From Amphiscolops sp. MND2022 (Eukaryota), in contig OZ076409.1 of NCBI GenBank assembly GCA_964187785.1, positions 43,216,001 to 43,280,000 of the forward strand: 64,000 nt of DNA, read 5' to 3'. The notes under the pieces were generated by a model. That model saw nothing but the letters and a program-made list of their open reading frames with translations, was not told the origin of the DNA and ran no database searches. Position 1 is the first letter of the stretch. Every line of letters starts with the position of its first letter. Made by a program: the position numbers and the translations under genes. Positions 12,230-61,600 of this stretch are shown piece by piece.

Positions 12230-13441
12230 TAGATATATGCAAGTTAGATATATAGCATTAGATATATGCAAGTTAATACGCTACTAGTTTGATGCTATTT
12301 ATATCTCCCCTCCCAAGATGCCGTAATGTCTAGTGCATTAATCTGTTTTCAAAACTGATGATCTAATATTAGGACTAGAGCTATTTTTAGAATGAGTTCA
12401 CCCTAAATTTACCTACCTGACGTACAAAATAATGAAGTTCATGGTGTTTTAGCTACATATACTCGGAATTCGTTTCCAAAACAACCATTGTTGATACTGC
12501 TGATATACAATACACTGTACCGTTTTATCTGTTACATTTCGACTCATCGTCAATTCACGGTTGAAAACGAACTACTGTTTTGTTATCTCTTCGACAAGGA
12601 AACAGAAAGCTAAAGAAAAGCGTTCGAGGCAGTCAGACATATTGCCTGGTCTTGAAAACGTGGATGTTATGCTAGGTAACAATCTAGAAGAAAATTACTA
12701 AGTGCAAAGAGAGAATGATGAAAATGAAATAGACTCAATGTCAAACATACAGGACCAAAAACTAATCAATAACGGTGAAGCATTCAGGTCTTAGTTAAAC
12801 ACTAATCTTAGTTAAAAAGTAGTGGTTCAACCGTAGAACCAAGCAGAGCAATTAACTCTTAACTTTCTTCTCAGGTATCAAGAAGGTCAGATTGTAGAAG
12901 TAATTAACTAAGCTATAACTGAAAAGGTACATCCGTCTATAGAAAATGTTATTAGACCAACTAAAACCACTTTAAATGCAAAATGGGTGATTCGGTCAGA
13001 AGGACTGCATCATAGTGAGTTGGCTCATGTAACTCAGAAGCATGACCTTTGTTCAGACGGACTGCATCATAGTGAGTCTGCTCTTGTAGTTCAGAAGCAT
13101 GACTTCCGGTCAGACGGACTGCATCACAGTGAATTTCCGCAAGCAACTCAGAAACGTGACCTTCGGTCGGACGAACAGCATCACTGTGAGTTTGTACAAG
13201 CAACTCAGAAAAGTGACCTTAGGTCAAACGGACTGCATTCAAACAAAATCAGACCGATAGCTCGGAAATGCGACCCTCGGTCAGTCAAAGAGCATCAAAG
13301 TAAAGTTAGCCAATCAGTCCAGGAGTCTCAGAACGACCTCTCCAGGTTGAATGCAACTAGTAGTAACTAAAATAATCACTGTGTGTTTATCTCTGATTTC
13401 GATCTCTGATTCCGATCTGAGTGACGATGAAGGTTACGACA
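12230..13441 (+). mobile_element. Degenerate, 5'-truncated LTR related to the 31.5-kb family
   Basis: SSTRKQKAKEKRSRQSD...ENVDVMLGN at ~12587; ends GATGAAGGTTACGACA as in the intact LTR. Confidence 0.85.
12987..13330 (+). repeat. 57-bp tandem repeat (~6 units) within the LTR-encoded gag segment
   Basis: GAC(C/T)-NNN-G(G/T)TC cores at 13044, 13101, 13158, 13215 and 13272; encodes DLRSDGLHHSE-type 19-aa repeats. Confidence 0.9.
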
Positions 13442-17273: not shown

Positions 17274-18999
17274 CCTGCGGTTGCAAAGTTTAAAACTCAT
17301 TTTATTGTTACTTTGTTCAAACTAAGTACTGAGAGATTTTATTATATTTCAGCGGTAGAAATATTTCTCCCGTTGTCACTCTTGTCAAGTAACTTTTTAA
17401 ATTGACTGAAATTTAACAAAAATATTTTTGTCAGATAACCTTCATAGCTAATAGGGCAACAAAGCGTATTTGCTATTTTTTAGTAAATCCTGCGGTTGCA
17501 AAGTTTGAAACTCATTTTATTGTTACTTTGTACAAATTTAGTACTGAGAGATTTTATTATATTTCAGCGGTAAAAATATTTCTCCCGTTGTCACTCTTGT
17601 CAAGTAACTTTTTAAATTGACTAAAAGTTAGCAATAATATTTTTGTCAGATAGGCATCATAGCTAATAGTGCAACAAAGCGTATTTGCTATTATTTTTAG
17701 TAAATCCTGCGGTTGCTAATTTTGAAACTCATTTTATTGTTACTTTTTTCAAACTTAGTACTGAGAGATTTTATCATCTTTCGCGGTAGAAATATTTCTC
17801 CCGTTGTCACTCTTGTCAAGTAACTTTTTAAACTGACTGAATTCCAACAATGTTCTTTTTGTCAGATAACCTTCATAGCTAATAGGGCAACAAAGCGTAT
17901 TTGCTATTTATTTAGTGAATCCTGCAGTTGCAAAGTTTGAAACTCACTTTATTGATACTTTGTTCAAACTTAGTACTGAGAGATTTTTTTATATTTCAGC
18001 GGTAAAAATATTTCTCCCGTTGTCACTCTTGTCAAGTAACTTTTTGAATTGACTGAAATTTAACAAATAATATTTTTGTCAGATAACCTTCATAGCCAAT
18101 AGGGCAAAAGCGTATTTGCTATTTTTTTAGTTAAATCTTGCGGTTGCAAAGTTTGAAACTCATTTTATTGTTACTTTGTACAAACTTAGTACTGAGAGAT
18201 TTTTATCATATTTCAGCAGTAGAAATTTTTCTCCCGTTGTCACACTTGTCAAGTAATTTTTTTAAGTTGATTGAAATTTAACAATAATATTTTTGTCAGA
18301 TAACCTTCATAGCTAATAGGGCAACAAAGCGTGTTTGCTATTTTTTTAGTAAATCTTGCGGTTGCAAAGTTTGAAACTCATTTTATTGTTACTTTGTACA
18401 ACTTAGTACTGAGAGGTTTTTTTTATATTTCAGCGGTAGAAATATTTCTCCCGTTGTCACTCTTGTCAAGTAACTATTTAAATTGACTGAAATTTAACAA
18501 TACCATTTTTGTCAGATAACCTTCATAGCCAATAGGGCAACCAAGCGTATTTGCTTTTTTTAGTAAACCCTGCGGTTGCAAAGTTTGAAATTCATTTTAT
18601 TGTTACTTTGTACAAACTTAGTACTGAGAGATTTTATTATATTTCAGCGGTAGAAATATTTCTCCCGTTGTGACTCTTGTCAAGTAACTATTTAAATTGA
18701 CTGAAATTTAACAATAATATTTTTGTCAGATAACCTTCCTGGCCAATAGGGCAACCAAGCGTATTTGCTTTTTTTAGTAAATCCTGCGGTTGCAAAGTTT
18801 GAAACTCATTTTATTGTTACTTTGTACAAACTTAGTACTGAGAGATTTTATTATATTTCAGCGGTAGAAATATTTTTCCCGTTGTCACTCTTGACAAGTA
18901 ACTTTTTAAATTGACTGAAATTTAATAATAATATGTTTGTCAGATAACCTTCATAGCTAATACGGCAACAAAGCGTATTTGCTATTTTTTTAGTGAATC
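17274..18999 (+). repeat. Intronic tandem satellite, 8 copies of ~215 bp
   Basis: Unit starts C(C/T)TGC(G/A)GTTGC at ~17274, 17489, 17706, 17921, 18137, 18355, 18569 and 18783; high identity between units. Confidence 0.97.
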
Positions 19000-19944: not shown

Positions 19945-20251
19945 ACTCGATTTGGCTAACGACAACTGTTTTGGCTAATCAAAGTTTTTTCTTTCAAGAG
20001 TTGAAATTCTTATTATACCAAAGTTTTTTAAACAGCTATCTTTAAAACGGCTGACTTACATGTATGACCGCATTAGGTAACATTTAAATAGCAACATTAA
20101 GCAGATATACACTATAGTCAACAGTCAACAGGATTTGTAAGTCTGCCATTATAAGAATAGCTGTTAAAAAAACTTTGGTATAATAAGAATTTCAACTCTT
20201 GAAAGAAAAAACTTTGATTAGCCAAAACAGTTGTCGTTAGCCAAATCGAGT
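19945..20251. mobile_element. MITE-like foldback element with ~115-bp inverted arms
   Basis: ACTCGATTTGGCTAACGAC... and ...GTCGTTAGCCAAATCGAGT; a similar terminus recurs at ~20280. Confidence 0.75.
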
Positions 20252-31500: not shown

Positions 31501-32994
31501 TGTCGGAGGCTGCCGCCTGCGACGGTCTACTATATCAGATCACCCCTGAAGATGACTCAAACGCTCCCGGCCCAGGTGTCCTTCCAATATAGGCAGAACT
31601 CAGAACTCAATTAAAACATTCACGAATACCATTATTTTAATATACATGTCAATATCTTACTGTTTCGTTGCTTAATTTAGTCACTGTGCGAATTTACTTT
31701 ATATGTTGTGACCTAAGGTCAGCCCGACGGCAAACGCCTACTTGTATTTTACCGTCATAAATGGCATGTAGCATTACTCACGATAAACCCCACCTGTTGT
31801 GAACTAGTATTTCACGCAGACCTGTAGTAAATTGTTTGTTGCTATTGATAAAGTTGGATTAATGATTAATCGATTGATGCTGTAAGCTGACAATGTACAG
31901 GAAACGCGTTCAACTGGTACAGCGTTGCCGTCAAGTTGACGCGTGGTCCGAACTACTTTTGACCAATCATATTGCAGTAACCAGTATTATACTGCCGCCA
32001 CAATGACCATTGGTCCATTCAGCTTAATATCATTTTGGACGCATGTATTGTTGCTGTTAACATGTAGCTATTAGAATCAAATTGTTGTTGTTGCTATTTA
32101 TAGTTAATAGGGCAAATGACGTAAGGTTAATTTGACCCTATTAGTCTATTTTTAGAAGATGCTATTTTAGACAATGACATCATGACTATTTTTGATAAAT
32201 GACACCCTAAATATTGAGCGTCATGCAGTAGTTAGTATATATATGTACGTTTCCAATAATAGGGGATTCATTCAATACACTTACAATCACACCGTTCACA
32301 TTACCGCGATATCCAATTCATTGTTGAAATCTGAAATTCTTTATTGCTATGCCTTCAACAAGAAAACAAAAGGCAAAAGAGAAACGCCCCAGACACTCTG
32401 ACGTAATGTCAGATATTGAAAATTTAGGCGTAATGCTGGGAAATTACACCCATGATGAAAATAGAGATCAAGAAGCCATTGATCAGAGAGGAATTGACCC
32501 TGAGTCAGAAAGACGGCAACAGACCTTAGATCAAAGTGAGACAAACTATAGATCACTCCTAAACACTAATTTGAGTGAAAACAGTGAAATTACCGCTGAG
32601 ACTAGTAGAATGATAAACTCAGAAATTTCATCACAAATGTCAAGGAAAATAGAGGAGATGAAATCAGACTTAAATTCCCATATTTTGGAGGTTATAAATT
32701 CAGCAATTGAGGAAAGGATATTGCCAAGCATTGAAAACGTGATTTCAAGCAATAGGGAAGCTAAAAATACAAAATGGGACCTTTGGTCAGATGGACGGCA
32801 TCCGGATAGAAACATTCAGATGACTCAAAATTCAGACCTTGAGTCACACGGACGGCATAAAAGTAAATTTTGCCAACAGGTCCAGGACTCAGGTGAGGAC
32901 TTTCCTAAATTAATCGGAACTTCTAGTAACCAGAATAATCACCGTAGGGAGAATTTAGTAGATTTTGAACAAAGTGATGATGAAGGTTACGACA
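31501..32994 (+). repeat. 5' LTR (1494 bp)
   Basis: TGTCGGAGG...GGTTACGACA. Aligns with 46015-47501 with roughly a dozen substitutions and two small indels (5 and 2 bp) by eye. Confidence 0.97.
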
Positions 32995-33006
32995 TGGTGA
33001 CAGGAG
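32995..33006 (+). promoter_or_regulatory. Primer-binding site, probably tRNA-Leu-like, lying inside the gag reading frame
   Basis: TGGTGACAGGAG directly after the LTR-terminal CA. TGG is complementary to tRNA CCA, and the site resembles TGGTGTCAGGAG, the complement of metazoan tRNA-Leu 3' ends (from memory). Confidence 0.75.
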
Positions 33007-34133
33007 CCAACCTTACCCCACATTTGGTCCCCGAATTCCTGACCGGACGGCCCATGCAATCTCGAAACACTATTCCCCTTCCAAATCCTAGCACTGACGA
33101 TACGCTGGAAACAACCCTCCCAGCTCAGCAAAATCCGATTTCAATCAACACTCACGAGAACACTCCGCCAACCTCCAGTCGACCCCATCAACCGTCTTGC
33201 AGATGTCATTATGGGGATGAACACGAAACAACCATCACAAACTCTGATGGTACGCCCAGTCAGTACGACCACACTGACGTTTGACGGGAAATCTGAAAAG
33301 TTCGAACTGTTCGAAGATCTTTTTCACACGATGATAAAGATGCAACCGGACATGACGGAAACAATGAAAATCAACCATTTTCACTCTCTGTTGCGCAAAA
33401 ACGCGCTACAGACCTTTCGCAACATCAATTCAACCAACAGACAAACCCTAGAGGACATACTAGCAGTCTTCCGTAGGAAATATGTCAAACCCGAATCTCA
33501 GGCAACTGCCAAACACAAATGGCACAAATTGGTATTTGATCCAAATACCATGAAATTGCCTGATTTCCTCGAAGAACTTAACCAAGGTGCTGAAAAAGCC
33601 TTTGGGGAACATGCCCAAGCACAGATTGATAGTTTGCTCTATGCTAAACTACCACCTAAACTGAAACGTTCAGTTAACATGGCGCGACTTGAAAACGCCA
33701 CGTATGAAGAGATTGTCACACATCTCGAACGAGAATTAGAACTGAATGGACTTGAGGAAGGTGACGACATTCACGTCCCCACAATGTCCACTGCCCCCAC
33801 AGCAACACGACCGGGAACTGGTCTCCTTTCATCCGGCATCGACCCAAACATTACTTGCAATTATTGCAAAAAACCTGGGCACGTCAAAGATGACTGCCGC
33901 AAACTCAAAAGAAAGGAGGAACAAAAGCGCAACGGCGGACACGATACGAAGGAAGAATATCCCAAATGTCCAACTTGCGACAAAACGAATCACCCGGCGG
34001 AACGGTGTTGGAAAGGCACTGGAGCCCACCTCAAGCCCAAAAACCTCAAATTGGATAATTCCAAAACCGAGGAAACTCCCATGAGTCAAGATGACTCCAA
34101 TAACAAACCCACTACTTCTTTTCTCAAAAATTC

Positions 34134-34140
34134 AAAAAAC
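34134..34140 (+). promoter_or_regulatory. -1 ribosomal frameshift slippery heptamer A AAA AAC at the gag-pol junction
   Basis: X XXY YYZ heptamer in gag phase directly before the gag TAG. pol continues in the -1 frame (CTA GAT TTG CCA...). Confidence 0.8.
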
Positions 34141-37100
34141 TAGATTTGCCACGATTCCAGATTAATGAAAAACTACGCGTCAGACAATATATCATATCTG
34201 ACCCTCCTACTACCTATTATACAGAATATTATTCCTCCATTAAAGAAAATTCATCAGCTGACTGGCAGCAGCAGGTGAAACAAACTCCTACCAATTTACA
34301 CAATTTGGACCTTCAGTCCAATAGACAGCACTCTCACACTATGACTATCCGCACTCTTCCCCTCATAGATAACTATAATGCCTATTATCCCGACCCAGAC
34401 TTTGGTTTCGACCCCTATTGGGACGTTCAAATCTACAACCAACATCATCTACACTTCTACAAAAACTTCACCAAAAATGCTGCAGATATCGAACCTGATC
34501 AACATCATATTGATCAATTACTGCATACCAAACTATCCATGGCCTCTGTGGGCCCCTGGCAAAAGGGGCAAACTAACAACCACCCACCAATCCAGGAAGA
34601 TATCACACAAGAACTTCCACACCACGGACCTTTGGTCACATTGACGGCAACAGTGGAAGAACGCTATGTGAACACACTGATCTCACGAAATGGTGAACCT
34701 GACTATGTCCCGTTGACAACCAACTTGGGGCTCAAATATAAACGACGCATGCTCTACTTTCCAATGGATTTCGGCGAACTAACATTAGATGGCCTTGTAG
34801 ACACGGGAGCCCTATCTAGCGCGATCCCAGAAGCTGATCTACGTAAAATCCGATTACTAGCCCCTCGGTCCATAATTAAAGAGGGCCCAGCACCCAACTT
34901 CCAAATTATGGTAGCTAATGGACAGCTGGAGAATCCAAAGAGCACCGTTGAACTCAAATTCGAGGTTGGGGACATCGATTTCCATGAGATCTTCATTGTT
35001 ATGGAAAAACTTACAAGTCCGCTCATTGGTCTCTCGTTCCTGCAACGGAACAATACCATATTGGACATGCGACAGGGAATCTTAAACTTTCCATTCTTTT
35101 CCATGCAATTAAAAACAGCTGACCATAAGTACACCAATGTCATGGAACCTATCTGTGCCCGGGAGGATATAACTATTCCCCCCAATGACAGACATATGGT
35201 CTCCATGTCCTCACAACTATATGACGACACAAACGTCACCGGAATCCTTCAACCGAGCAATGACCTCGCAGAAGATGGTGACATAACCTTCTGCGCTGCT
35301 CTCGTCACACTGACCCAAGGTCAGGTATCGATCCATGTCAACAATTTCACTGACCAGCCATACACCATCAAAAGAGGTTCGCACATTGCAAATTTCTCTG
35401 TTCTCACCCCAGAACAAATGAAATACGTCAAACCCATTGACCCAGTAACCACCTGGCACTTTTTGAAAGATAATCCGGAAAATGCTGCATACTATGCCAG
35501 TAGCCTCATCAAATCCCCGAAAAATAGCGAAGACAGTGAGAACTATTGGTTCCCGACTCCAGAAGAACCAGGGGACCCTCAAACGCATACACCAATACAA
35601 CAAAGAATCCTCAGGGAATTACGAAGCCTCCAGGATTTAGAGAAACTCAACCCCCAGGACGACCCTGAGTCCAGGAAACAGTTTCTTGCTAACTTTGACT
35701 GGACTGACTCAACGCTAAATCCGGTTGAAATTGCCCAAATTGAGGAATTACTCGTCGAAATTCACGACATTTTTGCAAGGCACCGCTTTGATATAGGAAT
35801 GAGCGAGGACTTCAAAGTCACATTGACCCCAAAAGACGACTCTCCCGCCTACAGTCAAAGCCTACCTACCCCTATCAACCTCAAAGAAGACATTCTTGTT
35901 GAATTAGCATTACTCCACCGCTATGGGATCATAACAACACTTCCGTTTTCCAAATATGCGAGCCCCATTTTTGCCCAGAAAAAACCTAATGGCAAATTAC
36001 GACTTTTGGTTGACCTCCGAAAAATCAACAATTTGATCTCCGACGATTATATCAACAACAACCATCCTGTCAGCACATTAACGGATGCAGCGCAACACAT
36101 GGCAGGCAAACGATTATTTTGCAAGCTCGACTGTTCTCAGGCATACCACTGTCTGCAGATGGCGGACCAAAGGTCCATAGAGATGTTGGCATTCAATTTC
36201 GCCAGTAGAACCTTTGCCTATCGCCGACTTGCGCAAGGTCTGAGCCGAGCCCTATCAGCTTTCTCTAGTTTTATGCGTGAATACCTGGATAAAGTGATTA
36301 AAGCGGATCAATGGGCCCAATATGTCGATGACATTGGGATTGCCGCCAACAGTGCCACTCAACTCATCAACAACTTGCGAGCAACATTTGCATGCATCAG
36401 GACCGCGGGTCTCAAATTAACGATGCACAAATGTCACTTCGGAGCCAAATAAATTGACTTCCTGGGACGCACCATCACTCCTGAGGGAGTGCGGCCGCAA
36501 CGACCCAGAGTCCAAAACTTTCTGGAGAAAACGAAATTTCCGAAATCCAAAAAAGCTCTACAACGATATTTTGGATTTTTAAACTACTACCGCAATTACA
36601 TTCCACGGCTCTCTGAAAAGCTAACACCATTCTTCAAGCTGTTGAAAAATGATGCCAAAGTCATGGTGACCCCTGAACTGTTAGAACAATTCATCGAGAT
36701 CAACAAAGCTCTTGACCGATGTTGTGAACTCGCACTCAAACAACCTCTGCCCAACAAACAGATAGCCCTGATGACTGATGCTAGTTTTTCGGCAGCAGGT
36801 TATGCAGTTCTCATCGAGGATGATCCAATGGAAAAATATAGTTCAACGCGCAAAGCCTTTGCACCAGTAGCATATGGATCCAAGACCTTTAGTCCCGCCC
36901 AGCTGAAAATGTCCATCTATGCGAAAGAATTCTTAGCAATATTCTTTGCCTTCAAGGAGTTTGGACACATCTTCTGGGGGACCCCGACACCGGTGATCAT
37001 TCTAACAGACAACAAATCAGTCAATCGCTTTTTTCAGACGAAAATTATTCCACCAACGCTATGGAACGCGTGTGACTATGTTATTCAGTTCAGCTTCACG

Positions 37101-39307
37101 ATTGACCATATACCAGGGAAAAACAATACTGCTGCAGATTATTTGTCCCGTCTCGAAATCTGTCCTAAAGAAAAACTTGTACTCCGCATACGAGAGGACA
37201 TTCCAACTACACCCATTGAACTCAATGTCCAATCAGCGGGAGTGACCGAAGAGGACCAGATATTCTACACGGACGACGAAGAAGAAACTGAGGAACAATT
37301 ATGGCAACGAAAAAAGGAAGCCAGGTCAAATCCTACAAACCAACTACCTGATATTACATTGGACAAACTCAGTCTACATAAAAGTACCCAAATCCAAACA
37401 CCAACTTTGCAAAAACTAGCGAAACCAATCACCATGGCTATTGAACAAAACAATGACATCACATTGCAACAACTACGCCTCAAATTACAAAAAGAAGAAT
37501 ACTCTGAAACCATCTTACAGCAGGATCCACGTTACCGACATTACTGCCGTCAACTTGACCGTCTGTCCGTTCATGAAGATATCATCTACAGAGACTATTA
37601 TGACGAAACCGGCAATGTCCAATTTCGCCAAGTGCTATTACCGAAACACCTTGTCACTGAATTACTTCAATCCTTACACGGCACTGCAAACAAACATCCA
37701 GGAATTTCCAAAATGCTTCATGAGATACGTCAAAAATACTTTTACCCTGGCGTTGCAAAAATTGTCAAAAAATGGGTCCAAGGGTGCGAAATCTGCATCC
37801 GAGACAAACGAATTGCCAACGCATCAATAACACCCGAATTACTGAATTTGCCAGAATGGGACCTAGGTCCGGAAGACGCCTTACAAATAGACCTGTTACC
37901 GAACCTCCCACCCAGTGGAGGATATGAAAACATCATAACAGCTTTAGACGTCTTCTCCCGATACCTTTCTGCATATCCTGTAACGGACGCGTCGGCAATC
38001 AGTACAGCAAAAGTTCTCATTGACATTATGACCCGACACACGTATCTACCAACGACACTTATCACAGATAAAGGAACGGCTTTTACGTCTCGCGTAGTAA
38101 CAGAAGTAGCAAAAATTTTGGGCATAACACTTCAATGTGCGACCACAAAACATCCTCAGACCATAGGTAAACTAGAGAGAACCCATGCCAGCCTTAAAGG
38201 AAACCTCAAAATGGCATCAGGAGAGTACAGGCGCCAGTGGCATAAATACCTCCCTCTGGCTGTCCTTAATTACAATACAACCTACCACTCTAGCCTAGGT
38301 TGCGAGCCATCTAGAATTTTTCATGGCAGAGTGCCTTATAACATCCTGGACCATCGGTTAGGTTTGAACCCCAATCCAAAAATCATACCAACAACCGACT
38401 TTGCTGAAGAACTACAACGTCGCACTCAAATCCTTATTGATAAAACAAAGAAAACATTATGCAATCATACTTAAAGTACAAAGACTATTACGATCGGAAG
38501 GCTAAAGCAGCTCCCCTACAACAAGGAGATTTTTGCTTCATTTTACAGCCACTAGCAGATCATCAGGGTTCTAAAATCCCATTTCGAGAATTTCGATGGA
38601 TCGGACCATATGTCATCGAAAAAGTCCTTCCTAACGAGAATTACATAGTGCGCAAACTTAATTCTAACAAAACGCAGATTTTACACCGCATACGCCTTAG
38701 GAAATATACTCCAAATACTACATTACAAGATACTCGCCCTGAAGGAAATTTACAAGCCGATGATGAAATTATTATCCCACAAGACGACCTGTACGTTATT
38801 TCTTGGGAAAGCAATTTTGATGATTTCCCTCCTACTACTGAACAGCAAATCATTCCTAACGATTCTCCTACTAATTTTGATGAACAAGACGCTATAATCA
38901 CAGATTTGGACCTTCGGTCCACGCGGCGGCAAGAAAATACTGACGTTGCGGATTCTGACTCACACTCGCGTGAAGTAGCTGACGCGGACCTTCGGTCCGC
39001 GCGACGGCAAACCAATACTGAAGCTGACACTTCTGAACAATGCTCGCGTGACCTAACTAATAATGACCGTCAGTCCACGCGACGGCAACAAAGTACTGAA
39101 TTTGAAAACGATGAAATAGTTAACCAAGACTCGCCTGTTGATGAAAATTCTGATTTTTCAACTTATAGGGGCAGTGATACAACCGTGCCCGGTGTATTAA
39201 ACGAAGAAACTGATGATTGTGTTGTAGAAAACGAAAGTCCTAGGGGAGGGAAATATAACCTACGCCCCAATCCTACCCCCAACTTTACTGATGAATACAG
39301 ATACTAG
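34140..39307 (+). pseudogene. pol: pol polyprotein (PR, dUTPase-like insert, RT, RNase H, integrase, GPY/F); in-frame TAA at 36450-36452 and frameshift near 38455
   Basis: PR: LVDTGA. RT: LRLLVDLRKIN, LDCSQAY, QYVDD. RNase H: TDAS, EFLAI, TDNKS, ADYLSR. INT: H-x5-H...CEIC, LQIDLL, ITDKGTAF, GKLERTH. GPY/F: RWIGPYVI. Confidence 0.96.
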
Positions 39308-39492
39308 ACAGAAAATGTAAATTCACTGGCCTGACATATCTTTTCTGATGTTTTAATCATTTGCTAGGCCCAGACTGTCTTTTTACCTTGGTGTCACAAA
39401 ATGACACGATTATATAAATAGAAAGACTCAAAACTGCTAACAAACGAAAGATTATATAAATACAACTAAGAACAAATGTACATATGGTACAA

Positions 39493-40622
39493 TTAAATGT
39501 CTTTAATACCAGAAGAGGAAGGCATCTCACTGTCTGATGGTCGCTTAACAGGCGAATTTTTGGCGCTAGAGGAAGGAAGGCTCTTCGTAACATTGCGGCA
39601 CTTAGGGTCCTTGAACCGTAACCTGCGACTGTCTGACTTTTGGACATCTCGCTTGGGCTTCAAAACGGAAAGAATCTGAGACCGATTAAAATAGTCCAAG
39701 CCATCCCACAGACCATAAGTATCGGAAAAGGCAGTGCCACCAAAAGTGGGTTCAAAGGCCAAGAATTCTGATATCGACGAGGAGGATGTCAAGATGTCAA
39801 TACTGTGCCCCACATTCATGAAGAAGGATTGCACAGGAAGGATGGTGTCGACTAGTTTACTCTTTGGATCGTCAGTACGTATTGGACCAAATTTAACTGG
39901 GTGCATACTGGTGAAATCCTCGTACAGACACAGGCAGCTCAATCTAAAGATTCGGACAAGATGGGGACGAGTTCGCAATCCCTCGTGGGTGGAAATAAAA
40001 GAAACGGCGTCAATAATGATCACCCTAGGTTGATCCAATTCAGGCAGCTCCTTCCTTAGTTCATCCAAAAAGGATAAATATTCCTCAGTGTACAGAGATT
40101 CCTCGTCAGGCTGAAAGTACCCGCGAAGTTGGAAACTTCGGAACAATTGTTTGTAGCAATAAAGGGCTTGACTGAGGGGACACCTAAACATAACGGCTAA
40201 GTCGAATGACCCAAGGCCTTTTACGATGTCGGACGTAAGCTGGAGGTTGCTCTGTGCAGTTTGAAACAAATAGGCAACGTATGCCCTTCCAAGTCTGCCG
40301 AAATCTTCTTTTGCTTCCTTCACCAGCTTCGGGAGGTTGGCTCGGCTTCCCTTCTTATCGCTTAGTTCTCTCTCAGCCTTGACTTTACAGGCGACGTTGA
40401 GTCTTTGTTCCAATTTGGATCGTACTATGAAGTCTGTGATTGATAAGGCCCTGGTGTCAGAAACGGCGATACCCAATATTGCTGACAAATCATTCTCTTG
40501 TGGGAGACTCTTAGGCCGCATGCAACGCCTCCCAAGCTTGAGCAAGAACTGACATAGCTGCCGATAAATGTGGAACCCGTGGTCCCGTCTCTCCACGAGG
40601 TGCGGCACGAAACTAGTGGTAT
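39493..40622 (-). CDS. Antisense accessory gene, exon 5 (hAT insertion/C-terminal-like region, basic tail)
   Basis: Phase-1 acceptor TGTTTAG|AT restores Tyr and joins the 386-aa ORF frame; contains RPHLVRIFRLSCLCL; stop at 39493. Confidence 0.85.
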
Positions 40623-40693
40623 CTAAACAAGATGCATTATAACATCCATGCAATTCAGAATCACACTATGCTAGGTAAACAAATCTCACTAAC

Positions 40694-40775
40694 AATCCCT
40701 GACAACTCGGTAGAAAAGTTCAAGGCGGCAGAGGAACAGTTCGTCGCTAAGCATAGCTCTCTCCAAATTCTGTGG
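40694..40775 (-). CDS. Antisense accessory gene, exon 4
   Basis: Acceptor GTTTTAG|CCA; PQNLERAMLSDELFLCRLELFYRVVRD; phase-1 donor T|GTTAGT. Confidence 0.8.
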
Positions 40776-40844
40776 CTAAAACACCAGCGTCCCTTAAGAG
40801 AAGTTCAAATTAGACTTAAGGTCAGGGTGACAGCAGGCACTCAC

Positions 40845-40979
40845 CTGTTTCTTGACTCCCATCATTGCGTGGGGAGGAGCATGAGCCTCGAGGTAGCTGG
40901 ATACACTGGGCCAGTGGGAAAGAAGTTCCTGACAGAGAGTGGGCAAAGTGCTCAATTCGATCTGACATGATCTCACAGC
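40845..40979 (-). CDS. Antisense accessory gene, exon 3
   Basis: Acceptor TTTCTTCAG|GCT; AVRSCQ...ELLSHWPSVSSYL...KKQ; donor CAG|GTGAGT; phase 0/0. Confidence 0.85.
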
Positions 40980-41053
40980 CTGAAGAAATCAGTCGATTAA
41001 GATGCAAAACAATGAGGATCCCTAGGAAGCAAGGAAAACTGAAATTAACTAAC

Positions 41054-41539
41054 CTTCGATAAGACTGGTGTCAGAAGAGTCCAATCACAATCGAGACAAC
41101 CTCCAAGGAAGATAATCAAGTATTGCAGAACCGAATGGAAGTCTATCCGCCCAAAGACACTGTAACTCTCTTTATGCATAAGTCTTGCAATGGAAAAATC
41201 AGCGAAACGTAGTGGGCGCTGAAGTCCGTGCTCACTAAATGGGGAGTTGTCCACAGCTTGAATTGTCTCCAGTGTGCTTCCGGAACAGCAGACAATATTG
41301 GGGGAAGTTGAAAACACGGCCTTGACGTCACTGATGAGTTGAAGTTCAGCTGCTGATTGCCCCAGTACACGGCCAGTCCGTTTGAGGAAGACGCGGCACA
41401 ATTCGTTTTTTCGCCAGAATCGGATGAATACCAATAAGAAGACACCTTGTTTGACAAACTCCAGGGAGTATTCACCAGACTCCACCACATGCGTTCCAAT
41501 GTCTTTCATCGTTTGCAAGAATAGATGATGAAACAGAAC
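41054..41539 (-). CDS. Antisense accessory gene, exon 2 (degenerate RNase H-like region of a hAT-type transposase)
   Basis: Acceptor TTTTCCAG|GTT with CTAAC/CTAAT branch-like motifs upstream; open phase-0 frame VLFHHLFLQ...PVLSK; donor AAG|GTTAGT. Confidence 0.85.
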
Positions 41540-41627
41540 CTGGAAAACATCAACGTTTTGTTAGACATTATTAGACAATAATTCAGCGATGGACGCAAGG
41601 TCAACGTGACGGCAATGAAGTACTTAC

Positions 41628-43744
41628 CGACAAACGTTCTTTACTCCAGTCGAAGTCTGTGAACAAGGCTTGGTGATTGACAACGACGCCCACATCTCGC
41701 CACAGGTTTCTCAAGGCACTGATATCACCATGGGTACGCAAGTAGTGTCCAAGGACTGACACCTGGACCCTTGTTCTGTTTTCTGAAGAGGACGTCATGT
41801 AATCAGTGCCACGCAAGTAATCCTCGTAGAAAGGAAGTTTTTCCCCAAGGTCCACAAGTGGCACATCTATGAATTTCGGTAACTCAAGCTGCAACTCATA
41901 AGGAGTCAGAAGTTTGCCATCCTTGCCACGCACGTAGTGTTTGACCATCTTTGTCACAGGGTCCTCGGTGACAAGATGCTCGTAACGCCACCTTTGATCC
42001 TTCCGCAGATGACGTTCAGTTGCATGGTGACGCAAGATCTCCCGGGCCCCACGGCCGTAAATTGAACTATTGCCCTTACAAATTTGGCAATAGAATTTGT
42101 ATGGGTTCCAACGCGGGTCGACTTGCCCAGACACAAAAGTTTTCGTCCACTCCATGCCCTTGAAATACGCCTCCTTCATAATCTTGCAGGCACGAGGGAC
42201 CCTATGGCGGTTGACAGAACTATTTGATGTTGTCTTCTTCCTTGGCCTCTTGCGAGAACTGGCCTTCGACCTTTCTGCAGCAGCTTCAGCCTTGAGGACC
42301 GCAAGAGTTTGGGCTCCTGGACTATCTACTTGGAACTCCACTTCAGCTGACCCTGGGTCAACTCGACTGCAACTGGGTAGAGCAACCGGAGGCGAAGCAA
42401 ATGGTTGGCTTTCAAGGTCGGAATGTTCGTACGCGTAACCAATGCTCTCAAAATCGTCAGAACTTCTTAATGCCCCACTTGTGTCGCTTGCTTCTCCTGA
42501 TGTCATTCCAGATTGTGGCCCTGGCGTAGGAGCTCGGTAGCCAGGTTTATTTGTAGTCACTCGGCCACCATGAGGCAATTGGGACGTCCCGAGACTCAGT
42601 CTACTCGCACGCTCCACCAAACTTTCCATCATCTTAAGAGAAGTTTTCACTGCTTCTTCTGCCACGGCCTTGACAATACAATTGACTTGGCCCTCGTTGA
42701 GCGCTAACGTTGTGTGTCCTGCTGGGAGATTTACGGGGGAAACTTTGTCGAAACATTCTTTATGAGCACACGACTGCTTGCCGATAACTGGGGCCCCCTG
42801 GTGATCTCTTCAGGGAAATCGACAGAGGTAACACTGCCTGTATCGCCGACTCTGTGTCTACTTGTACCCACTGGGGCATATATAGCGTCTGCCACTGTCG
42901 AGCCTACCGGTCCAGCGGACTCTTGTCCAGTGTCACTGGCAGACCTATCTATGGTAGCGTGAGGAACAATGGTGTGTGGGCTGTCCATTCCAAACTCATC
43001 ACCAGTAGTTGAACCCCCTTCAGCATTCGACAGACCTTCAGTATCGGATGCAGAAACAGAAAACTCTCTTCTAGTGTCTCCGATTTTGACACACAGTTTT
43101 TGAATCTTTGGTTCTGTTGGCCTATACATTGACTTCAGTTTACTCTTGATTGGATTAGTGGTAGGTTCAAGGAAAGCTACACTCGGTACAGAATCTGATT
43201 CGGATTCAATTTGACCTAGGGAATTTTGGGTCGGAGCCAACTCCAATGCCGCGCTCTCGCTGACTTTTCCGATGTTGCCGTCGCTCGGACCTTGAGTCTC
43301 GTTTTCTGGAGAGGTGCCTAACTGCTCCCATTTTCGGGCGATGTATGCCCCGCAACTTTCGTCTGTGCTACTGCTCTCTACATTAGCGTGCCTTAACGTG
43401 GATTGGGGTGTGGCAGTAGGATCATGTAGACCAACAGGCAGAGTTTGTGGCAGGTCGTTCTGAACCACTTCTTGCATCTGGGATTCTTCACCTTGGACGT
43501 GAGGACTAACAGCAGGATCAATGACAGTTGGTAAGACAGCTCCAGCGTCCATCTCCTCCTGTCCGGGTTGAGAGTCACACACTAAAGGGGGACTTGCAAT
43601 GTGAGACGAAGCAGTTATGTACGACTCACTAGTGTCCATTCTTTCTTCTCCTTCCGTGTTCAATTGGATAGGTTGGCCATTTGACTCATTATCTAAACGA
43701 AATGAGATAAATAAGCGCGGTTGACTTCCTGAGTACAAATCCAT
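41628..43744 (-). CDS. Antisense accessory gene, exon 1: acidic/disordered N-terminus plus BED-like zinc finger; one frame break near 42730-42760; 5' end uncertain
   Basis: ORFs 42731-43744 and 41601-42665 overlap in different frames. Contains W...KFYCQICKGNSSIYGRGAREILRHHATERH (C-x2-C...H-x4/5-H). Ends at the donor TCG|GTAAGT. Confidence 0.8.
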
Positions 43745-44530
43745 CTCACCGCATTAAAATTCTTCCGGAAGTTCTTTGACACAATGTTCATGCTTTATGC
43801 AAACATTTCACGATGCAGGAAGTTACTTTGTTAAATTTAGAGCCCTGATCAAGCCTAGTTTAACACCTTTTAAAAGAACCAACCTGATGCAGATTCCATG
43901 ATGGGTTTGCGGAATTGATGTGATCCTTTTGAAATACACGAATTTGTCTGGGTATGACGGATCGACAGGTAGTCTCTCAATTGCGATAAACAAACAGTCC
44001 ACTCTAGTACGTAGTGCATTTTCCCAAATAAAGGCCTACAAAGGAGGTAACAGGAGATACTGTGGAGAAAATGAATTGATAGTATTACGAATGGCAGTTG
44101 ACAATAGGTAGAGAATTAATTACAAGGAAGTAATTAAAAGGATTTTCAAAAATCACTAATAGGCAGAAACAGAAGATCAGAGTACAACCCAAGGTCAGAG
44201 AGACTATACAGATTACGGAGTAATGCAGTATAGCTCAAGTGATACTACTTGAGAAGACAATAATAGACTGAAAGTAAAATTAGCGAGGAGTATTGTCTGA
44301 AATGGGACGCAACGTCAGCTGGACGGCAGTGTATTACTAGTTCACAATCAAGTATTACTCGACCAGTGCTTATGCATTGGACGATGAGTCATCCTGACGG
44401 CAAGACATTAATTGTTACCAAATGTATTTTTGTTCTTCTTCCCCTACCTTTTCTCACCCTACTGACTAATTATTAATTCGTACTGTCAAGTTAACGCCAC
44501 AACTTAGTCTTTTTTAATCTATTTCGTCCA

Positions 44531-44532
<2 letters not shown>

Positions 44533-44594
<62 letters not shown>

Positions 44595-44625
44595 TTTATT
44601 ATTCTTATTATTATTATTATTATAT
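44533..44625 (+). repeat. (ATT)n microsatellite in the element's internal non-coding spacer
   Basis: Direct reading. Confidence 0.95.
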
Positions 44626-45113
44626 TACTAGTATTAATATGATAGTTGTTATTATTACCGACTGGACGTCGTGGCTACATATAAAACGTTCTCTTGTTAC
44701 CATCTCATCTGCACTAATTAGATTTCATCATTACTAATCCATGATATGGAACCTGCCAGTGAAATGTTCATGGACTTCCCTGTTATTTTATTTCACTATT
44801 CTTCCCTAAAAACGCATCAAATTAATTCCTTCATTTCATACTTAGGAAATTATTCATCATCTTTCTTCATTCAAATTACCGTCACCTGATTGGTTGTCAT
44901 CATTAGTGCCGTCGCATGGACCGACGGTCTTTCAAGTTAATTGTTGACAGAGAATTAAGAGGAACGACACTTAAATTGTCAAGTGACGCCTTTGAAGAAT
45001 AAAGTAAAACAACTTGAAGAGGCTATTTATAAGCTTCTCAGATAAATTGCTCAAAAACTATTTGAGACTCTACTCTTAATCAAATCCTAAAAAGGAAAAG
45101 TTGAAACTATGAT

Positions 45114-46106
45114 TTGGGAGAAACCTCGCGCCGTATTCCCGCCAAAATTGGGGTTGGACCCAAAGTCAGGCGGACGGCAAAAGTTTACTTCTCATCCTAC
45201 CCTTCTGAAAATCAGTTGCCAAAAATTCAAGCTAGCAAAATTGCGAAAAGGATATTCCTCAATCGATACAACGCAGAGATGGCTCTACAATTCAACTGTG
45301 AATTACTTCCCAGATCGCTAGTGGATTCAAGCTACCAGTCGTCAGATGAAGATATGGACGTCGACTCCATAAATTCCGCTGACGATATTCTAGATGCTCC
45401 CGGCGAGGACGACGATATACAAGTTTTGGCTTGCTACCGATACAATACTGAATTCCCTCCACAATTAGCGGCAGGAAGGGCTATGACAACCGAGCTAACC
45501 GAATGTCTCAACGATCTTAACTTGCCCATCAGTGAACCCACTGAATCGGTGAGTACGTTTACAGAACCCTCAAATTCATTGATTGATTGGTTCGTTGGGA
45601 ATCCACCCCCCACATATTATGGGCAACCTGCTAGCGACCACCCAATAGCCCAATGTAGCCAATTCAACCCAATCCTAGAATCCCCTCTGTCTCCTCCATT
45701 AATTGACCAGAGACCAGCTTATGATGATGCGCGAGAAACCCACTTGCCACCTCAAGATGACAATTGGATTAGCAACCCCCACATTACGGTATTGGCAATA
45801 AACATCAGTAGGACTTGTGGGCAGCCAAATGATGTCTATTACACGGGATGTGTAGTGTGCGGGAAAGACTACGCTGCAATCAAAGAGGAAATTACACTTG
45901 GCTACTTAGAACGTACACACGTTGCAGGCGAATCCTACGAAACAAGGATTGCAAAAAGAGATGCCTTCGAAGCCGGAATGAAGGCGGGATCCTTCATTCT
46001 CATCCCCAGGGGAGTGTCGGAGGCTGCCGCCTGCGACGGTCTACTATATCAGATCACCCCTGAAGATGACTCAAACGCTCCCGGCCCAGGTGTCCTTCCA
46101 ATATAG
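45114..46106 (+). CDS. Extra 3' sense ORF of the retrotransposon, unknown function (likely ATG at ~45279, MALQF...)
   Basis: 330-codon intact ORF, acidic and Pro-rich, with a CVVC motif. It crosses the PPT and stops 92 nt into the 3' LTR. No signal peptide or TM helix evident. Confidence 0.75.
   Translation: MGETSRRIPAKIGVGPKVRRTAKVYFSSYPSENQLPKIQASKIAKRIFLNRYNAEMALQFNCELLPRSLVDSSYQSSDEDMDVDSINSADDILDAPGEDDDIQVLACYRYNTEFPPQLAAGRAMTTELTECLNDLNLPISEPTESVSTFTEPSNSLIDWFVGNPPPTYYGQPASDHPIAQCSQFNPILESPLSPPLIDQRPAYDDARETHLPPQDDNWISNPHITVLAINISRTCGQPNDVYYTGCVVCGKDYAAIKEEITLGYLERTHVAGESYETRIAKRDAFEAGMKAGSFILIPRGVSEAAACDGLLYQITPEDDSNAPGPGVLPI
46008..46014 (+). promoter_or_regulatory. Polypurine tract (short)
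   Basis: AGGGGAG abutting the TG start of the 3' LTR. Confidence 0.75.
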
Positions 46107-47501
46107 GCTCAGAACTCAATTAAAACATTCACGAATACCATTATTTTAATATACATGTCAATATCTTACTGTTTCGTTGCTTAATTTAGTCACTGTGCGA
46201 ATTTACTTTATATGTTGTGACCTAAGGTCAGCCCGACGGCAAACGCCTACTTGTATTTTACCGTCATAAATGGCATGTAGCATTACTCACGATAAACCCC
46301 ACCTGTTGTGAACTAGTATTTCACGCAGACCTGTAGTAAATTGTTTGTTGCTACTGATAAAGTTGGATTAACGATTAATCGATTGATTCTGTAAGCTGAC
46401 AATGTACAGGAAACGCGTTCAACTGGTACAGCGTTGCCGTCAAGTTGACGCGTGGTCCGAACTACTTTTGACCAATCATATTGCAGTAACCAGTATTATA
46501 CTGCCGCCACAATGACCATTGGTCCATTCAGTTTAATATCATTTTGGACGCATGTATTGTTGCTGTTAACATGTAGCTATTAGAATCAAATTGTTGTTGT
46601 TGCTATTTATAGTTAATAGGGCAAATGACGTAAGGTTAATTTGACCCTATTAGTCTATTTTTAGAAGATGCTATTTTAGACAATGACATCATGACTATTT
46701 TTGATAAATGACACCCTAAATATTGAGCGTCATGCAGTAGTTAGTATATATGTGCGTTTCCAATAATAGGGGATTCATTCAATACACTTACAATCACACC
46801 GTTCACATTACCGCGATATTCAATTCATTGTTGAAATCTGAAATTCTTTATTGCTATGCCTTCAACAAGAAAACAAAAGGCAAAAGAGAAACGCTCCAGA
46901 CACTCTGACGTAATGTCAGATATTGAAAATTTAGACGTAATGCTGGGAAATTACACCCATGATGAAAATAGAGATCAAGAAGCCATTGATCAGAGAGGAA
47001 TTGACCCTGAGTCAGAAAGACGGCAACAGACCTTAGATCAAAGTGAGACAAACTATATATCACTCCTAAACACTAATTTGAGTGAGAACAGTGAAATTAC
47101 CGCTGAGACTAGTAGAATGATAAACTCAGAAATTTCATCACAAATGTCAAGGAAAATAGAGGAGATGAAATCAGACTTAAATTCCCATATTTTGGAGGTT
47201 ATAAATTCAGCAATTGAGGAAAGGATATTGCCAAGCATTGAAAACGTGATTTCAAGCAATAGGGAAGCTAAAAATACAAAATGGGACCTTTGGTCAGATG
47301 GACGGCATCCGGATAGAAACATTCAGATGACTCAAAATTCAGACCTTGAGTCACATGGACGGCATAAAAGTAAATTTTGCCAACAGGTCCAGGACTCATG
47401 TGAGAACTTTCCTAAATTAATCGGAACTTCTAGTAACCAGAATAATCACCGTAGGGAGAATTTAGTAGATTTTGAACAAAGTGATGATGAAGGTTACGAC
47501 A
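46015..47501 (+). repeat. 3' LTR (1487 bp)
   Basis: Same termini as the 5' LTR; preceded by the purine tract AGGGGAG and followed by the TSD TGAGA. Confidence 0.97.
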
Positions 47502-60819: not shown

Positions 60820-61600
60820 AACTTTTACAAAAATTGCGTAGTAAAATACAAAAATGTAAAAAAGGTAAGATTTTCCTTGTGGCAATTCTTTTTTAAGGTC
60901 ATTTCTGGTCGCCAAATGTGTGTTTTTTTCATTACAAAACTTCGTTTATTTCCTAAAACAAGCCTTCCTGACAAAAAATTTGTTCTTTGTTGAACGTCTT
61001 TGAAACTCGAAGCCACCAAAACTTTCCAAAATTCTACAAAAACTGCATAAAATTTTCAAAATTTGATTTGTTTTGTGCTTTTGTCAATTTCGGTCAGAAT
61101 TTGATGCATTTTTTCAACACCAATTGCTTTTTTCTCTCCAAAGAAACAACCACGACAACGAATTTGTTCCCAACTGAACGTCTTGAACATTCTAAGCCAC
61201 CATGTTTTTCGAAAAGTACACAAAAATTGCATAAAAGTTTCAAAAATTTTTAGTTTTCAAGTTTTTTTGTCAATTTAGGTCCAAATTTGATGCATTTTTT
61301 CAACACAAATTGCTTTTATCTCTTCAAGGAAGCCTCCAGGACAACGAATCTTTTCCTTGCTTAGCGTCTTTGACATTCTAAGCCACCAATTTTTTCGAAA
61401 AATAGACAAAATTTGCATAAAATTTTCAAAATTCTGAATTTTCGAAAATTTTTGTATTTTTGGGTCTGAATTGGAGGCAATTTTTCATTCAAAAATTCCA
61501 TTTATTTCTTTGAAAAAGCCTCTTGGATAACAATGTTTTTCTCTTTGGATCATCGATAATTTGACAAAAATTGCATAAAATTGGAAAATTTTGCAGTTTT
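60820..61600 (+). repeat. Degenerate ~170-200-bp tandem repeats
   Basis: Recurring ACAAAAATTGCATAAAATTTTCAAA / TTTGATGCATTTTTTCAACAC / AAGCCACC blocks. Confidence 0.6.

Follow-up and report, generated by a model that had tools for sequence, protein, structure and literature searches.

Why would one retrotransposon carry the same spaced sequence about twenty times, and which protein would read it? The element lies in a window of 64,000 nucleotides (the whole stretch of DNA analysed here) from Amphiscolops sp. MND2022 (contig OZ076409.1, assembly GCA_964187785.1), and all positions below refer to that window. A sequence-only reading had described repeated GACC-NNN-(G/A)GTC palindromes in the element and proposed that they serve as dimer sites for the product of a gene on its opposite strand, by analogy with VANDAL/VANC. 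The locus bears on two wider questions: how retrotransposons escape silencing, and what antisense accessory ORFs do. For the antisense ORF of plant Retand elements, the consulted part of one source states the function as unknown (PMC11963269).

The element and its antisense gene

31501..47501, plus: Ty3/Gypsy LTR retrotransposon, ~16 kb, with TGT...ACA ends and a 5-bp target duplication, TGAGA
31501..32994, plus: 5′ LTR, ~1.5 kb
32350..34143, plus: gag, starting within the LTR; zinc knuckle
34104..39307, plus: pol, with protease, dUTPase, RT, RNase H and integrase (Pfam)
38908..39100, minus: tandem repeat of 78-bp units in the tail of integrase, each unit with a motif site (38908, 38986, 39064)
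39493..40622, minus: predicted last exon of the antisense gene; no family match, taken by position as hAT insertion plus C-terminal region
40694..40775, minus: predicted antisense exon 4; GT-AG ends and phase
40845..40979, minus: predicted antisense exon 3; GT-AG ends and phase
41054..41539, minus: predicted antisense exon 2; RNase H-like core, no acidic residue ending strand 4
41628..43750, minus: predicted antisense exon 1; N-terminus of ~500 aa, acidic and rich in S/T/P, then a basic stretch resembling an NLS, a putative BED-type zinc finger and a helical region
45105..46106, plus: second accessory ORF (U3-ORF), extending into the 3′ LTR; conserved CxxC
46015..47501, plus: 3′ LTR, with six duplicated motif sites

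By structure the carrier is a Ty3/Gypsy element: paired LTRs that begin and end in TG...CA, a short target-site duplication, gag upstream, and a pol ordered PR-RT-RH-INT with dUTPase between PR and RT. Alignment of the two LTRs gives 1479 identical bases out of 1492. Three genes are broken in the window copy: gag by a frame break near 33.1-33.2 kb, pol by an in-frame stop near 36.45 kb and a frame break near 38.45 kb, and the antisense gene by a frame break in exon 1 near 42.75 kb. In several other copies gag is a single open frame of 603-610 aa. The U3-ORF, a rival binder candidate that the sequence-only reading did not consider, is conserved and under purifying selection; searches, Pfam among them, found no DNA-binding family for it.

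The antisense gene occupies the same position in all families that we fetched. Its dN/dS of 0.02-0.11 indicates purifying selection, and GT donors at matching places across families suggest that it is spliced. Its earlier description as BED/hAT-like finds support in the protein alignment, a finger model and a Hermes-like model of a homologue. The alignment displays a BED-like W..F..CxxC..H..H pattern. The finger model retrieved ZBED1 and ZBED3, weakly, as its top two Foldseek rows (E 1.7-2.3) and nothing with Z of 5 or more in a wide fold search; Pfam zf-BED matched one of 59 family members (E 0.0099). For the homologue P0017, modelled at pLDDT 70 and pTM 0.46, the top nine Foldseek rows were Hermes (best E 2.1e-3, prob 0.97, none at E<=0.001), and comparison with Hermes (VIA) gave Z 6.5 and rmsd 5.3 over 117 aligned residues, tied with unrelated RNase H-like folds. 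This homologue model lends moderate support to a Hermes-like arrangement of helical region plus RNase H-like core, and points to a hAT transposase origin. The last exon returned no Pfam or PDB sequence match for the insertion domain or hATC region, and the later exons nothing named in PDB, Pfam or longer-protein searches (best Atlas values 0.81 and 0.79, leads only).

We did not find the DDE triad of an active hAT transposase. In all nine alignment rows shown, strand 4 ends without an Asp or Glu, and the residue ending strand 1 is variable in the same alignment, with strands assigned from the model. We take these positions to correspond to the Hermes acids by fold topology and known motifs rather than by residue-level superposition; so mapped, the catalytic acids appear to be lost. 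The gene looks like a disabled cut-and-paste transposase on the element's opposite strand. As to a hAT transposon's own TIRs, no inverted repeat of at least 60 nt was seen inside the element. The homologues retrieved were, as far as their sources were given, all unnamed ENA proteins, and no intact donor transposase turned up. Because the divergent homologues P0027, P0017 and P0148 have no close match in this genome at the thresholds used (P0008 reaches 56% at best), all four may stem from other genomes.

A three-part motif and the selection on it

All 23 palindromes listed in the sequence-only reading are present as described, and sites do fall in all three codon phases. The palindrome makes up only two-thirds of the signal: four bases off it stands a third arm, TGCCGYC, at 19 of the 23 sites, the exceptions (35661, 36165, 36401 and 36502) all being in pol. 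The full motif, TGCCGYC-N4-KGAC-N5-GTC, is an asymmetric 23 bp of rigid spacing, with the 4/5 spacing in 104 sites and any other in one across seven elements. The proposed simple dimer site is ruled out by this third arm at fixed spacing; three parts suit three DNA-binding domains. Since the palindrome's inner C/G is only a preference, five additional sites in the unique part (31926, 37545, 41591, 44305 and 44379) had been overlooked. The element, 31501-47501, holds 21 sites, 15 minus and 6 plus, with the TGCC arm in 17. Besides the three in the integrase-tail repeat, they are:

31709..31732, minus: upstream part of LTR
31926..31949, plus: upstream part of LTR; new
31993..32016, plus: upstream part of LTR
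32495..32857, minus: three sites (32495, 32777, 32834), LTR portion of gag
34307..34649, minus: two sites (34307, 34626), pol
35300..35323, plus: weak site, dUTPase region of pol
37545..37568, plus: pol; new
40812..40835, minus: predicted intron 3 of the antisense gene
41591..41614, minus: predicted intron 1 of the antisense gene; new
42348..43299: two sites in antisense exon 1, 42348 minus and 43276 plus
44305..45179: four sites upstream of the antisense gene, 44305, 44379 (both new) and 45156 minus, 44907 plus

The sites are concentrated near the LTR promoter and in the DNA preceding the antisense gene. A TATA-like word at 32236 divides the six of the 5′ LTR into three upstream and three downstream, the latter within the start of gag.

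Across 3,328 gapped palindromes, GACC-N3-GGTC ranks first in the 5′ LTR and internal DNA (11 observed versus 0.18 expected). Coding DNA holds eight copies, whereas synonymous-codon shuffles average 0.66 and none of 1000 attains eight; it also holds ten full three-part sites, against a shuffle mean of 0.12 (0/1000). In non-coding DNA the fixed motif bases are conserved at 538 of 568 positions and the spacers at 255 of 432; at fourfold positions the figures are 115 of 120 for fixed bases and 985 of 1857 nearby. Because fixed bases are thus conserved above their neighbours (95-96% versus 51-65%) at both non-coding and synonymous positions, selection acts on the nucleic acid, as the sequence-only reading had argued. 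Both orientations of the motif are conserved.

Genome-wide, the outcome depends on the form of the motif. The strict three-part motif has 3,831 matches versus 2 in the control, and each of the 16 clusters checked comes from this element group; it is element-specific wherever checked. The short palindrome KGACCNNNGGTCM is not, being common elsewhere in the genome: it has 11,034 matches versus 1,804 in the control, and 9 of 14 single-site probes lack similarity to the element group. A metagenome scan yielded 81 pattern matches, none of them confirmed.

Motif versions and candidate binders

Sister families with diverged antisense genes carry other versions of the motif, switched in concert at homologous sites, as had been predicted for different antisense paralogues. 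Where the sites of one sister family align to 11 TGCC arms of the window, none keeps TGCC; eight read TGCA, two TGCT and one TCGT. CpG decay was considered as the cause and rejected, C to A not being a deamination; the TGCT arms could be. Bases and spacing change in concert among families in one genome, and one family's version is a direct repeat, GGAC-N7-RGAC. Motifs of distant families are weaker (5-15 sites versus 0.5-2 expected, partly read by eye), and further families were sampled from already listed loci only. The top motif-finder scores for L025-26, L027-28, L063-64, L065-66 and L073-74, 44-59, are not significant alone, the finder scoring shuffled DNA up to 59, and their motifs rest on fixed-pattern counts chosen post hoc.

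We compared proteins by how well they follow the motif. On the antisense tree the TGCC group forms a single clade (support 100), whereas it requires two changes on the integrase tree and three on the U3-ORF tree; total motif-label changes on the three trees are 8, 9 and 8. Motif class is tracked at AUC 0.99-1.00 by the antisense protein versus 0.97-0.98 by RT and integrase (non-independent pairs), and worst, at 0.70, by the U3-ORF. In L099-100 the integrase groups with TGCC elements and the U3-ORF with the window, the antisense gene is of the other type, and TGCC arms occur at 3 of 19 sites versus 17 of 21 in the window. The correspondence is loose in places. L025-26, L027-28 and L091 form a mosaic clade that shares pol and GGAC-N5-GTCC sites and carries three different antisense genes, and one finger loop, YSKGARE, accompanies two motif types, so there is no strict one-to-one lock and no simple residue code; a code read from the finger loop is ruled out by that shared loop. 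An old element (L034+L095) has kept its sites, and no antisense gene was found in it. In three recombinants the U3-ORF travels with the upstream LTR part, and the arms match its donor family; because these recombinants are recent, they do not settle the binder question either way. Pol-less repeats, with no U3-ORF, gag, pol or LTR, contain open antisense frames and arrays of 12-26 copies of their own family's motif.

We surmise that the antisense protein probably recognises the motif in multimeric form and serves its own family as activator or protector, much as VANC, TnpA or foamy virus Tas do; its expression, binding, stoichiometry and activation are what we infer. The element would have captured a hAT DNA-transposase gene in antisense, which would have lost its cutting chemistry and been retained as a sequence-specific regulator. 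A multimer would set three BED fingers on the half-sites GTC, GAC and GTC, at 8-bp steps along double-stranded element DNA, and with ~20 sites over the LTR, gag-pol and the antisense gene the protein would coat copies of its own family. Coated copies may stay transcribable through activation by the acidic, disordered N-terminus or through exclusion of repressive chromatin. Protein and sites would drift together, leaving one key per family, and the motif with its family-matched protein would provide the element with an on-switch or shield of its own.

The same protein might instead bind without activating, repressing the element or limiting its copy number, or looping and escorting new cDNA (nuclear entry, integration complex) through hAT multimerising and bridging. 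Selected sites deep in pol exceed the needs of a promoter switch, no CpG-methylation footprint needs counteracting, and the Hermes ring of dimers engages several sites, as described in part of PMC10368747. We nevertheless regard such a role as unlikely, given how the sites gather at the LTR promoter and ahead of the antisense gene, and given the report, in the available text, of catalytically dead transposases as transcription regulators (10.64898/2026.08.24.746577). The LTR-less, pol-less repeats, which keep open antisense frames and amplified sites, are more easily reconciled with a role in chromatin or transcription than with one in cDNA. It seems improbable that the motif is bound by some other protein of the element, be it the product of the U3-ORF with its CxxC, Gag or integrase. 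RT and integrase identity track motif class well, and the U3-ORF, conserved under purifying selection, moves with donor-family arms in the three recombinants; it is also the poorest tracker, belongs to no DNA-binding family found, and pol-less repeats amplify the motif with neither U3-ORF, gag nor pol.

Slightly less probable still is a host transcription factor, perhaps of nuclear-receptor type, with the antisense gene as unrelated cargo. Nuclear-receptor-type factors favour TGACC/GGTCA half-sites, and the short palindrome, six-fold over control genome-wide, is present in unrelated repeats. One shared factor leaves the concerted switches of base and spacing within one genome unexplained, the full motif maps to the element group in every cluster checked, and the interior of a distant Gypsy without the antisense gene has none of the motif variants. 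A hairpin or packaging signal in RNA strikes us as very improbable, although KGAC-N5-GTCM could form a 4-bp stem and the sites favour the minus strand. Both orientations are conserved, two sites lie in predicted introns, and the version in one family is a direct repeat. Flanking stem positions covary no more than by chance (30 versus 28.3 and 27 versus 22.2 of 68), and the one inner pair in excess (28 versus 17.3) would enclose a loop of a single base, which is impossible. An origin by chance, codon bias or protein constraint retains next to no weight: several of the sites, read in phase 0, specify D-L-x-S-type peptides, and such an origin is possible for the four arm-less pol sites, but for the three-part motif it is refuted by the shuffles and by conservation at non-coding and fourfold positions.

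With regulation by the antisense protein as the preferred reading, we lean, by a little, towards a broader view: that a class I element turned a domesticated class II transposase into a sequence-specific regulator of its own, in a lock-and-key cassette (protein plus ~20 three-part sites) with at least six motif versions in one large genome, swapped by recombination and carried on by site-amplifying pol-less repeats.

Relation to known systems

The sequence itself reveals both partners of the candidate system, namely a protein whose ancestry makes DNA binding plausible and a long site that is under selection and specific to its family. Proteins and sites pair up from one family to the next, a series that could teach how BED multimers come to differ in specificity and spacing. 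If true, the evolution of transposases into regulators would include domestication by a transposon of another class as well as by hosts, LTR-retrotransposon self-recognition would exist outside plants and independently of DNA methylation, and the families would amount to a natural collection of BED proteins, each with a 20-bp specificity of its own. In the searchable literature we found no report of an LTR retrotransposon with such an antisense protein and motif arrangement; searches directed at acoels, whose repeats it may resemble, yielded nothing on elements of this kind.

The parallel with Arabidopsis VANDAL/VANC stands in its logic. Both systems pair a TE-encoded accessory protein with a family-specific short motif enriched only in cognate copies (here, where checked), and in both, motifs diverge between families and sites are amplified in tandem repeats (PMC5735166, consulted in part). 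VANDAL is a Mutator-like DNA transposon of plants (PMC5735166), whereas the carrier here is a Gypsy LTR retrotransposon and the protein model matches hAT; VANC itself resembles the cellular protein MAIN (PMC13547354). VANC sites are 8-9 bp and non-coding, and VANC binding is demonstrated (PMC5735166), whereas the sites here are 23 bp, three-part and found in coding DNA too, with a predicted hAT/BED-derived binder. Demethylation is where the parallel fails: VANC strips DNA methylation (PMC5735166), whereas no methylation footprint is seen here. CpG transitions between paired LTRs are not in excess (29/1133 versus 156/6219), flank CpG o/e is 0.91, and there is little sign in the sequence of germline 5mC available for removal; DNA demethylation by the antisense protein is unsupported.

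Hermes has a BED finger followed by a helical region and an RNase H-like core (PMC10368747, in the part available), and the antisense protein, with its putative BED finger, is predicted to follow the same order. Hermes BED fingers bind a quasi-palindrome cooperatively, with three BEDs per DNA end, and an Arg just before the zinc histidine reads bases (PMC10368747); an Arg there is near-invariant in the antisense family. Hermes cuts and pastes, and binds subterminal repeats adjoining its TIRs (PMC10368747), whereas here the sites spread through an LTR element, the acids appear lost, and neither TIRs (inverted repeats of at least 60 nt) nor an 8-bp duplication was seen. Spm TnpA and other transposase-derived regulators have a transposase origin, lost catalytic residues and activated cognate sequences, as proposed here; they serve DNA transposons or the host, whereas here the domesticator would be a class I element, and the main text of that source, as available, contains neither 'retrotransposon' nor 'LTR' (10.64898/2026.08.24.746577).

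The plant Gypsy elements Retand and Grande also have an antisense ORF between pol and the 3′ LTR with predicted DNA binding, along with family-specific tandem repeats and a proposed regulatory role; they are confined to plants, and we encountered no cognate motif in the available part of the source (PMC11963269). Their TRP28 domain (PF04195) had no match among the element's proteins in Pfam searches. We know of no link between foamy virus Tas/Bel1 and transposases. Tas/Bel1 differs further in being a sense-strand protein of vertebrate retroviruses with promoter elements as its targets, and is like the proposed regulator in that a retroelement encodes a protein which binds DNA elements of the LTR and internal promoter and activates them (PMC517496, PMC4929722, both in part).

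A three-part motif spread along a Gypsy element

The element in the window is an LTR retrotransposon with the coding order gag, then PR-dUTPase-RT-RH-INT. Both an antisense gene and a sense open reading frame, the U3-ORF, occupy the stretch that separates pol from the 3' LTR. The window copy carries breaks in gag, in pol and in the antisense gene. Since gag starts within the LTR, solo LTRs carry about 215 gag codons and three motif sites.

Features of the window (coordinates, strand where assigned, description)
31501-47501, +, Gypsy LTR retrotransposon; LTRs 99.1% identical, TGT...ACA ends, TGAGA duplication
32350-33000, gag start inside the LTR, reading through the primer-site region
41628-42260, -, stretch encoding the putative BED-containing region of the antisense protein
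42590-42770 (about), -, short, probably helical block inside the otherwise low-complexity N-terminus of the antisense protein
44533-44657, (TTA)42 microsatellite, flanked by motif sites and upstream of the antisense gene
45105-46106, +, U3-ORF; conserved CxxC, helical C-terminal part, extends into the 3' LTR
1845-2306, ORF resembling another solo-LTR gag remnant
12287-13370, sister-family LTR remnant; TGCAGTC-type arms in a 57-bp tandem repeat
17274-18999, tandem array, 214-bp units, 8 copies
19945-20251, MITE-like 116-nt inverted repeat with 95% complementarity and a 75-nt gap
60924-61522, tandem array, 186-bp units, 3 copies
Throughout, a GGGGACCCTTTGGG-containing repeat dispersed in many copies

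A sequence-only reading had listed 23 sites of the palindrome GACC-N3-(G/A)GTC, and all 23 read as claimed. GACC-N3-GGTC ranked first in excess among 3,328 gapped palindromes, with 11 occurrences versus 0.18 expected in the 14.5 kb of 5' LTR and interior. Linked words such as GCCG-N6-TGAC surfaced in the same gapped-word scan because the palindrome comes after nearly every GCCGTC within the element (all GCCGTC listed). The true motif is TGCCGYC-N4-KGAC-N5-GTC(M), longer than the palindrome, which it extends by a third part, or arm. An exact GAC...GTC follows 138 of 168 TGCCGYC words in nine related elements, and spacing is rigid: the 4/5 arrangement occurs at 104 sites in seven elements, versus 1 at any other. 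A matrix trained on six other element copies scored 21 sites in the element's unique part, of which 15 are on the minus and 6 on the plus strand, together with 6 in the 3' LTR and 4 belonging to a solo LTR at 13.0-13.2 kb; all 20 shuffles yielded none. Of the 23 listed sites the matrix recovered 19. The original observation is confirmed and extended, and its interpretation partly supported and sharpened.

Conservation was judged against six related copies that are not mutually independent. At non-coding sites, fixed bases were conserved at 538/568 positions, versus 255/432 in spacers and 1294/1993 in flanks. Fourfold-degenerate positions within fixed bases were conserved in 115/120 comparisons (20 positions) versus 985/1857 nearby, a level matched in 0 of 100,000 draws. 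Coding DNA also holds 10 full sites where 1000 synonymous shuffles average 0.12, and selection is thus seen at the nucleic-acid level. Sites are retained in either orientation, with stem covariation largely lacking, so the simplest reading is that the motif acts as a double-stranded DNA site.

Across the 1.07-Gb genome, the strict three-part pattern had 3,831 matches versus 2 for a reversed control, whereas the shorter form first proposed was less specific (11,034 versus 1,804). The first 100 of the 3,831 matches form 16 clusters, every one of which was traced to this element group: fetched DNA linked 12 (one through a short match only), and coincidence with antisense-gene hits linked the other 4. 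Nine of 14 single-site probes of the short palindrome lacked similarity to the group. Of the four perfect palindromes that the window holds beyond the element, three are accounted for by the LTR remnant at 12287-13370.

Related loci vary in what they retain. Pol-less repeats hold long open antisense frames in six copies; two copies examined closely have arrays of their own family's site and no U3-ORF match. Loci L051-L062 and L067-L068 (for example, G000:C2 about 29.31-29.33 Mb) are repeats at least about 20 kb long that are 90-99% similar to one another and occur on six chromosome-size contigs. The stretches examined have no gag, pol or LTR, but do have open antisense frames together with 88-bp arrays that stem from the integrase-tail repeat bearing the family motif. 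At L036-L037, 3.1-kb direct repeats flank a distant Gypsy (RT about 39% identical); part of this group's LTR, motif sites included, falls within those repeats, a sign of either site capture or insertion into a solo LTR. At L094 and L096-L098, the integrase of one family's element holds a nested element of another family; the inner element has about nine GGCC-N6-GGCC-type sites per LTR and no detectable antisense gene. Two other repeats (L082, L086, L089 and L081, L085), neither similar to the element group, carry the short palindrome in a shared context.

The antisense gene and its product

The antisense gene has five predicted exons and four GT-AG introns of 69-88 nt with consistent phase, the predicted junctions being 41627/41540, 41053/40980, 40844/40776 and 40693/40623. 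Splice donors fall at corresponding places across families, and exons 1 and 2 read in a single frame in the divergent homologue P0017. At least 150 genome copies match the finger region at 76-100%; in many of them the first frame is open over about 700-750 residues. Wherever dS can be measured, dN/dS is 0.02-0.11. Predicted introns contain two motif sites, and four more lie upstream of the gene.

About 500 acidic, S/T/P-rich residues are followed by a basic stretch and a W..F..CxxC..H..H finger. The block at about 42590-42770 appears by eye to be conserved in distant homologues (P0017, L053-54) and is a candidate interaction surface. The finger model (pLDDT 84) had BED domains as its two best matches, both weak. 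With a P0017 model spanning finger through exon 2 (pLDDT 70, pTM 0.46), Hermes transposase occupied all nine leading Foldseek rows, with a best E of 2.1e-3, and scored Z 6.5 in a wide fold search, amid other RNase H-like folds. Database matches gave no family assignment for the last exon. In none of the families shown does strand 4 end in an acidic residue, and the residue ending strand 1 is variable; from the established positions of DDE acids we infer a catalytically dead enzyme. The U3-ORF, which has no family match, is present in all families with LTRs and recombines independently of the antisense gene.

Protein and motif across families

Motif counts in the unique part of each element (shuffle expectation near 0 unless given; patterns of distant families picked after inspection)
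Window, L007-8, L017-18: 17, 13 and 17 TGCCGYC
L021-22: 0 TGCCGYC, 8 TGCAGTC
L069-70: 6 TG(A/T)RGYC
L071-72, L043-44, L047-48: 12-15 GCC-N6-GGC (1.6-2 expected); 0-3 KGAC-N5-GTCM
L065-66, L073-74: 5-6 GGAC-N7-RGAC (0.5 expected)

By sequence comparison, antisense protein and motif vary together across families. RT is 83-99% identical among these families and the last antisense exon only 27-58%. Arms switch in concert at homologous sites: 11 window TGCC arms have aligned counterparts in L021-22, none of which retains TGCC. No motif version is in excess inside a distant Gypsy that lacks the antisense gene. In trees of 21 elements, the TGCC group forms a single clade on the antisense-protein tree only; it requires 2 changes on the integrase tree, where just 1 is imposed by starred branches, and 3 changes on that of the U3-ORF. 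Element L099-100, which groups with TGCC elements by integrase and with the window by U3-ORF, has the other antisense type and TGCC arms at 3 of 19 sites.

Other comparisons argue against a clean lock-and-key pairing. The three trees need 8, 9 and 8 label changes in total, and motif class can be predicted from RT or integrase almost as well as from the antisense exons, because families are mostly inherited as whole units. The expectation that different antisense paralogues accompany different motifs held for the family-specific versions. L025-26, L027-28 and L091 have pol and GGAC-N5-GTCC sites in common but three different antisense genes. L027-28 bears two motif types, and one finger loop occurs with two motifs. 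Three recombinants acquired both the upstream LTR part and the U3-ORF from a different family, and in that part mostly retain donor-type arms, a pattern compatible with either the antisense protein or the U3-ORF product as binder.

Proposed action and known systems

The antisense protein is a strong candidate, quite probably the binder. The BED helix of Hermes reads bases through the major groove; a pair of fingers binds cooperatively to a quasi-palindrome, and a single multimer uses three fingers to engage one DNA end (PMC10368747). A palindrome with a third half-site at fixed distance would suit such a multimer, and we therefore propose, with moderate confidence, that the antisense protein coats copies of its own family through the three-part sites and promotes their transcription. 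DNA-methylation removal is an unlikely means of action, since paired LTRs show no CpG transition excess (2.56% versus 2.51%) and flanking DNA has a CpG o/e of 0.91.

In open-licence PubMed Central and bioRxiv, our search turned up no case of an LTR element carrying a captured hAT/BED gene together with its cognate motif; a prior description may exist in supplements, repeat databases or subscription journals, which lay outside its scope. Nor do the parts of PMC13547354 and PMC6431247 consulted describe this arrangement. There is a good chance that capture across transposon classes is undescribed so far. Rotifer LTR elements have captured enzymes as extra ORFs (PMC5408684), and plant Retand elements also have antisense ORFs, with predicted DNA binding and function unknown there (PMC11963269). 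The present system would work in the manner of VANC (PMC5735166) and of transposase-derived regulators (10.64898/2026.08.24.746577), but is a member of neither: its carrier is a retrotransposon and its protein is hAT-like.
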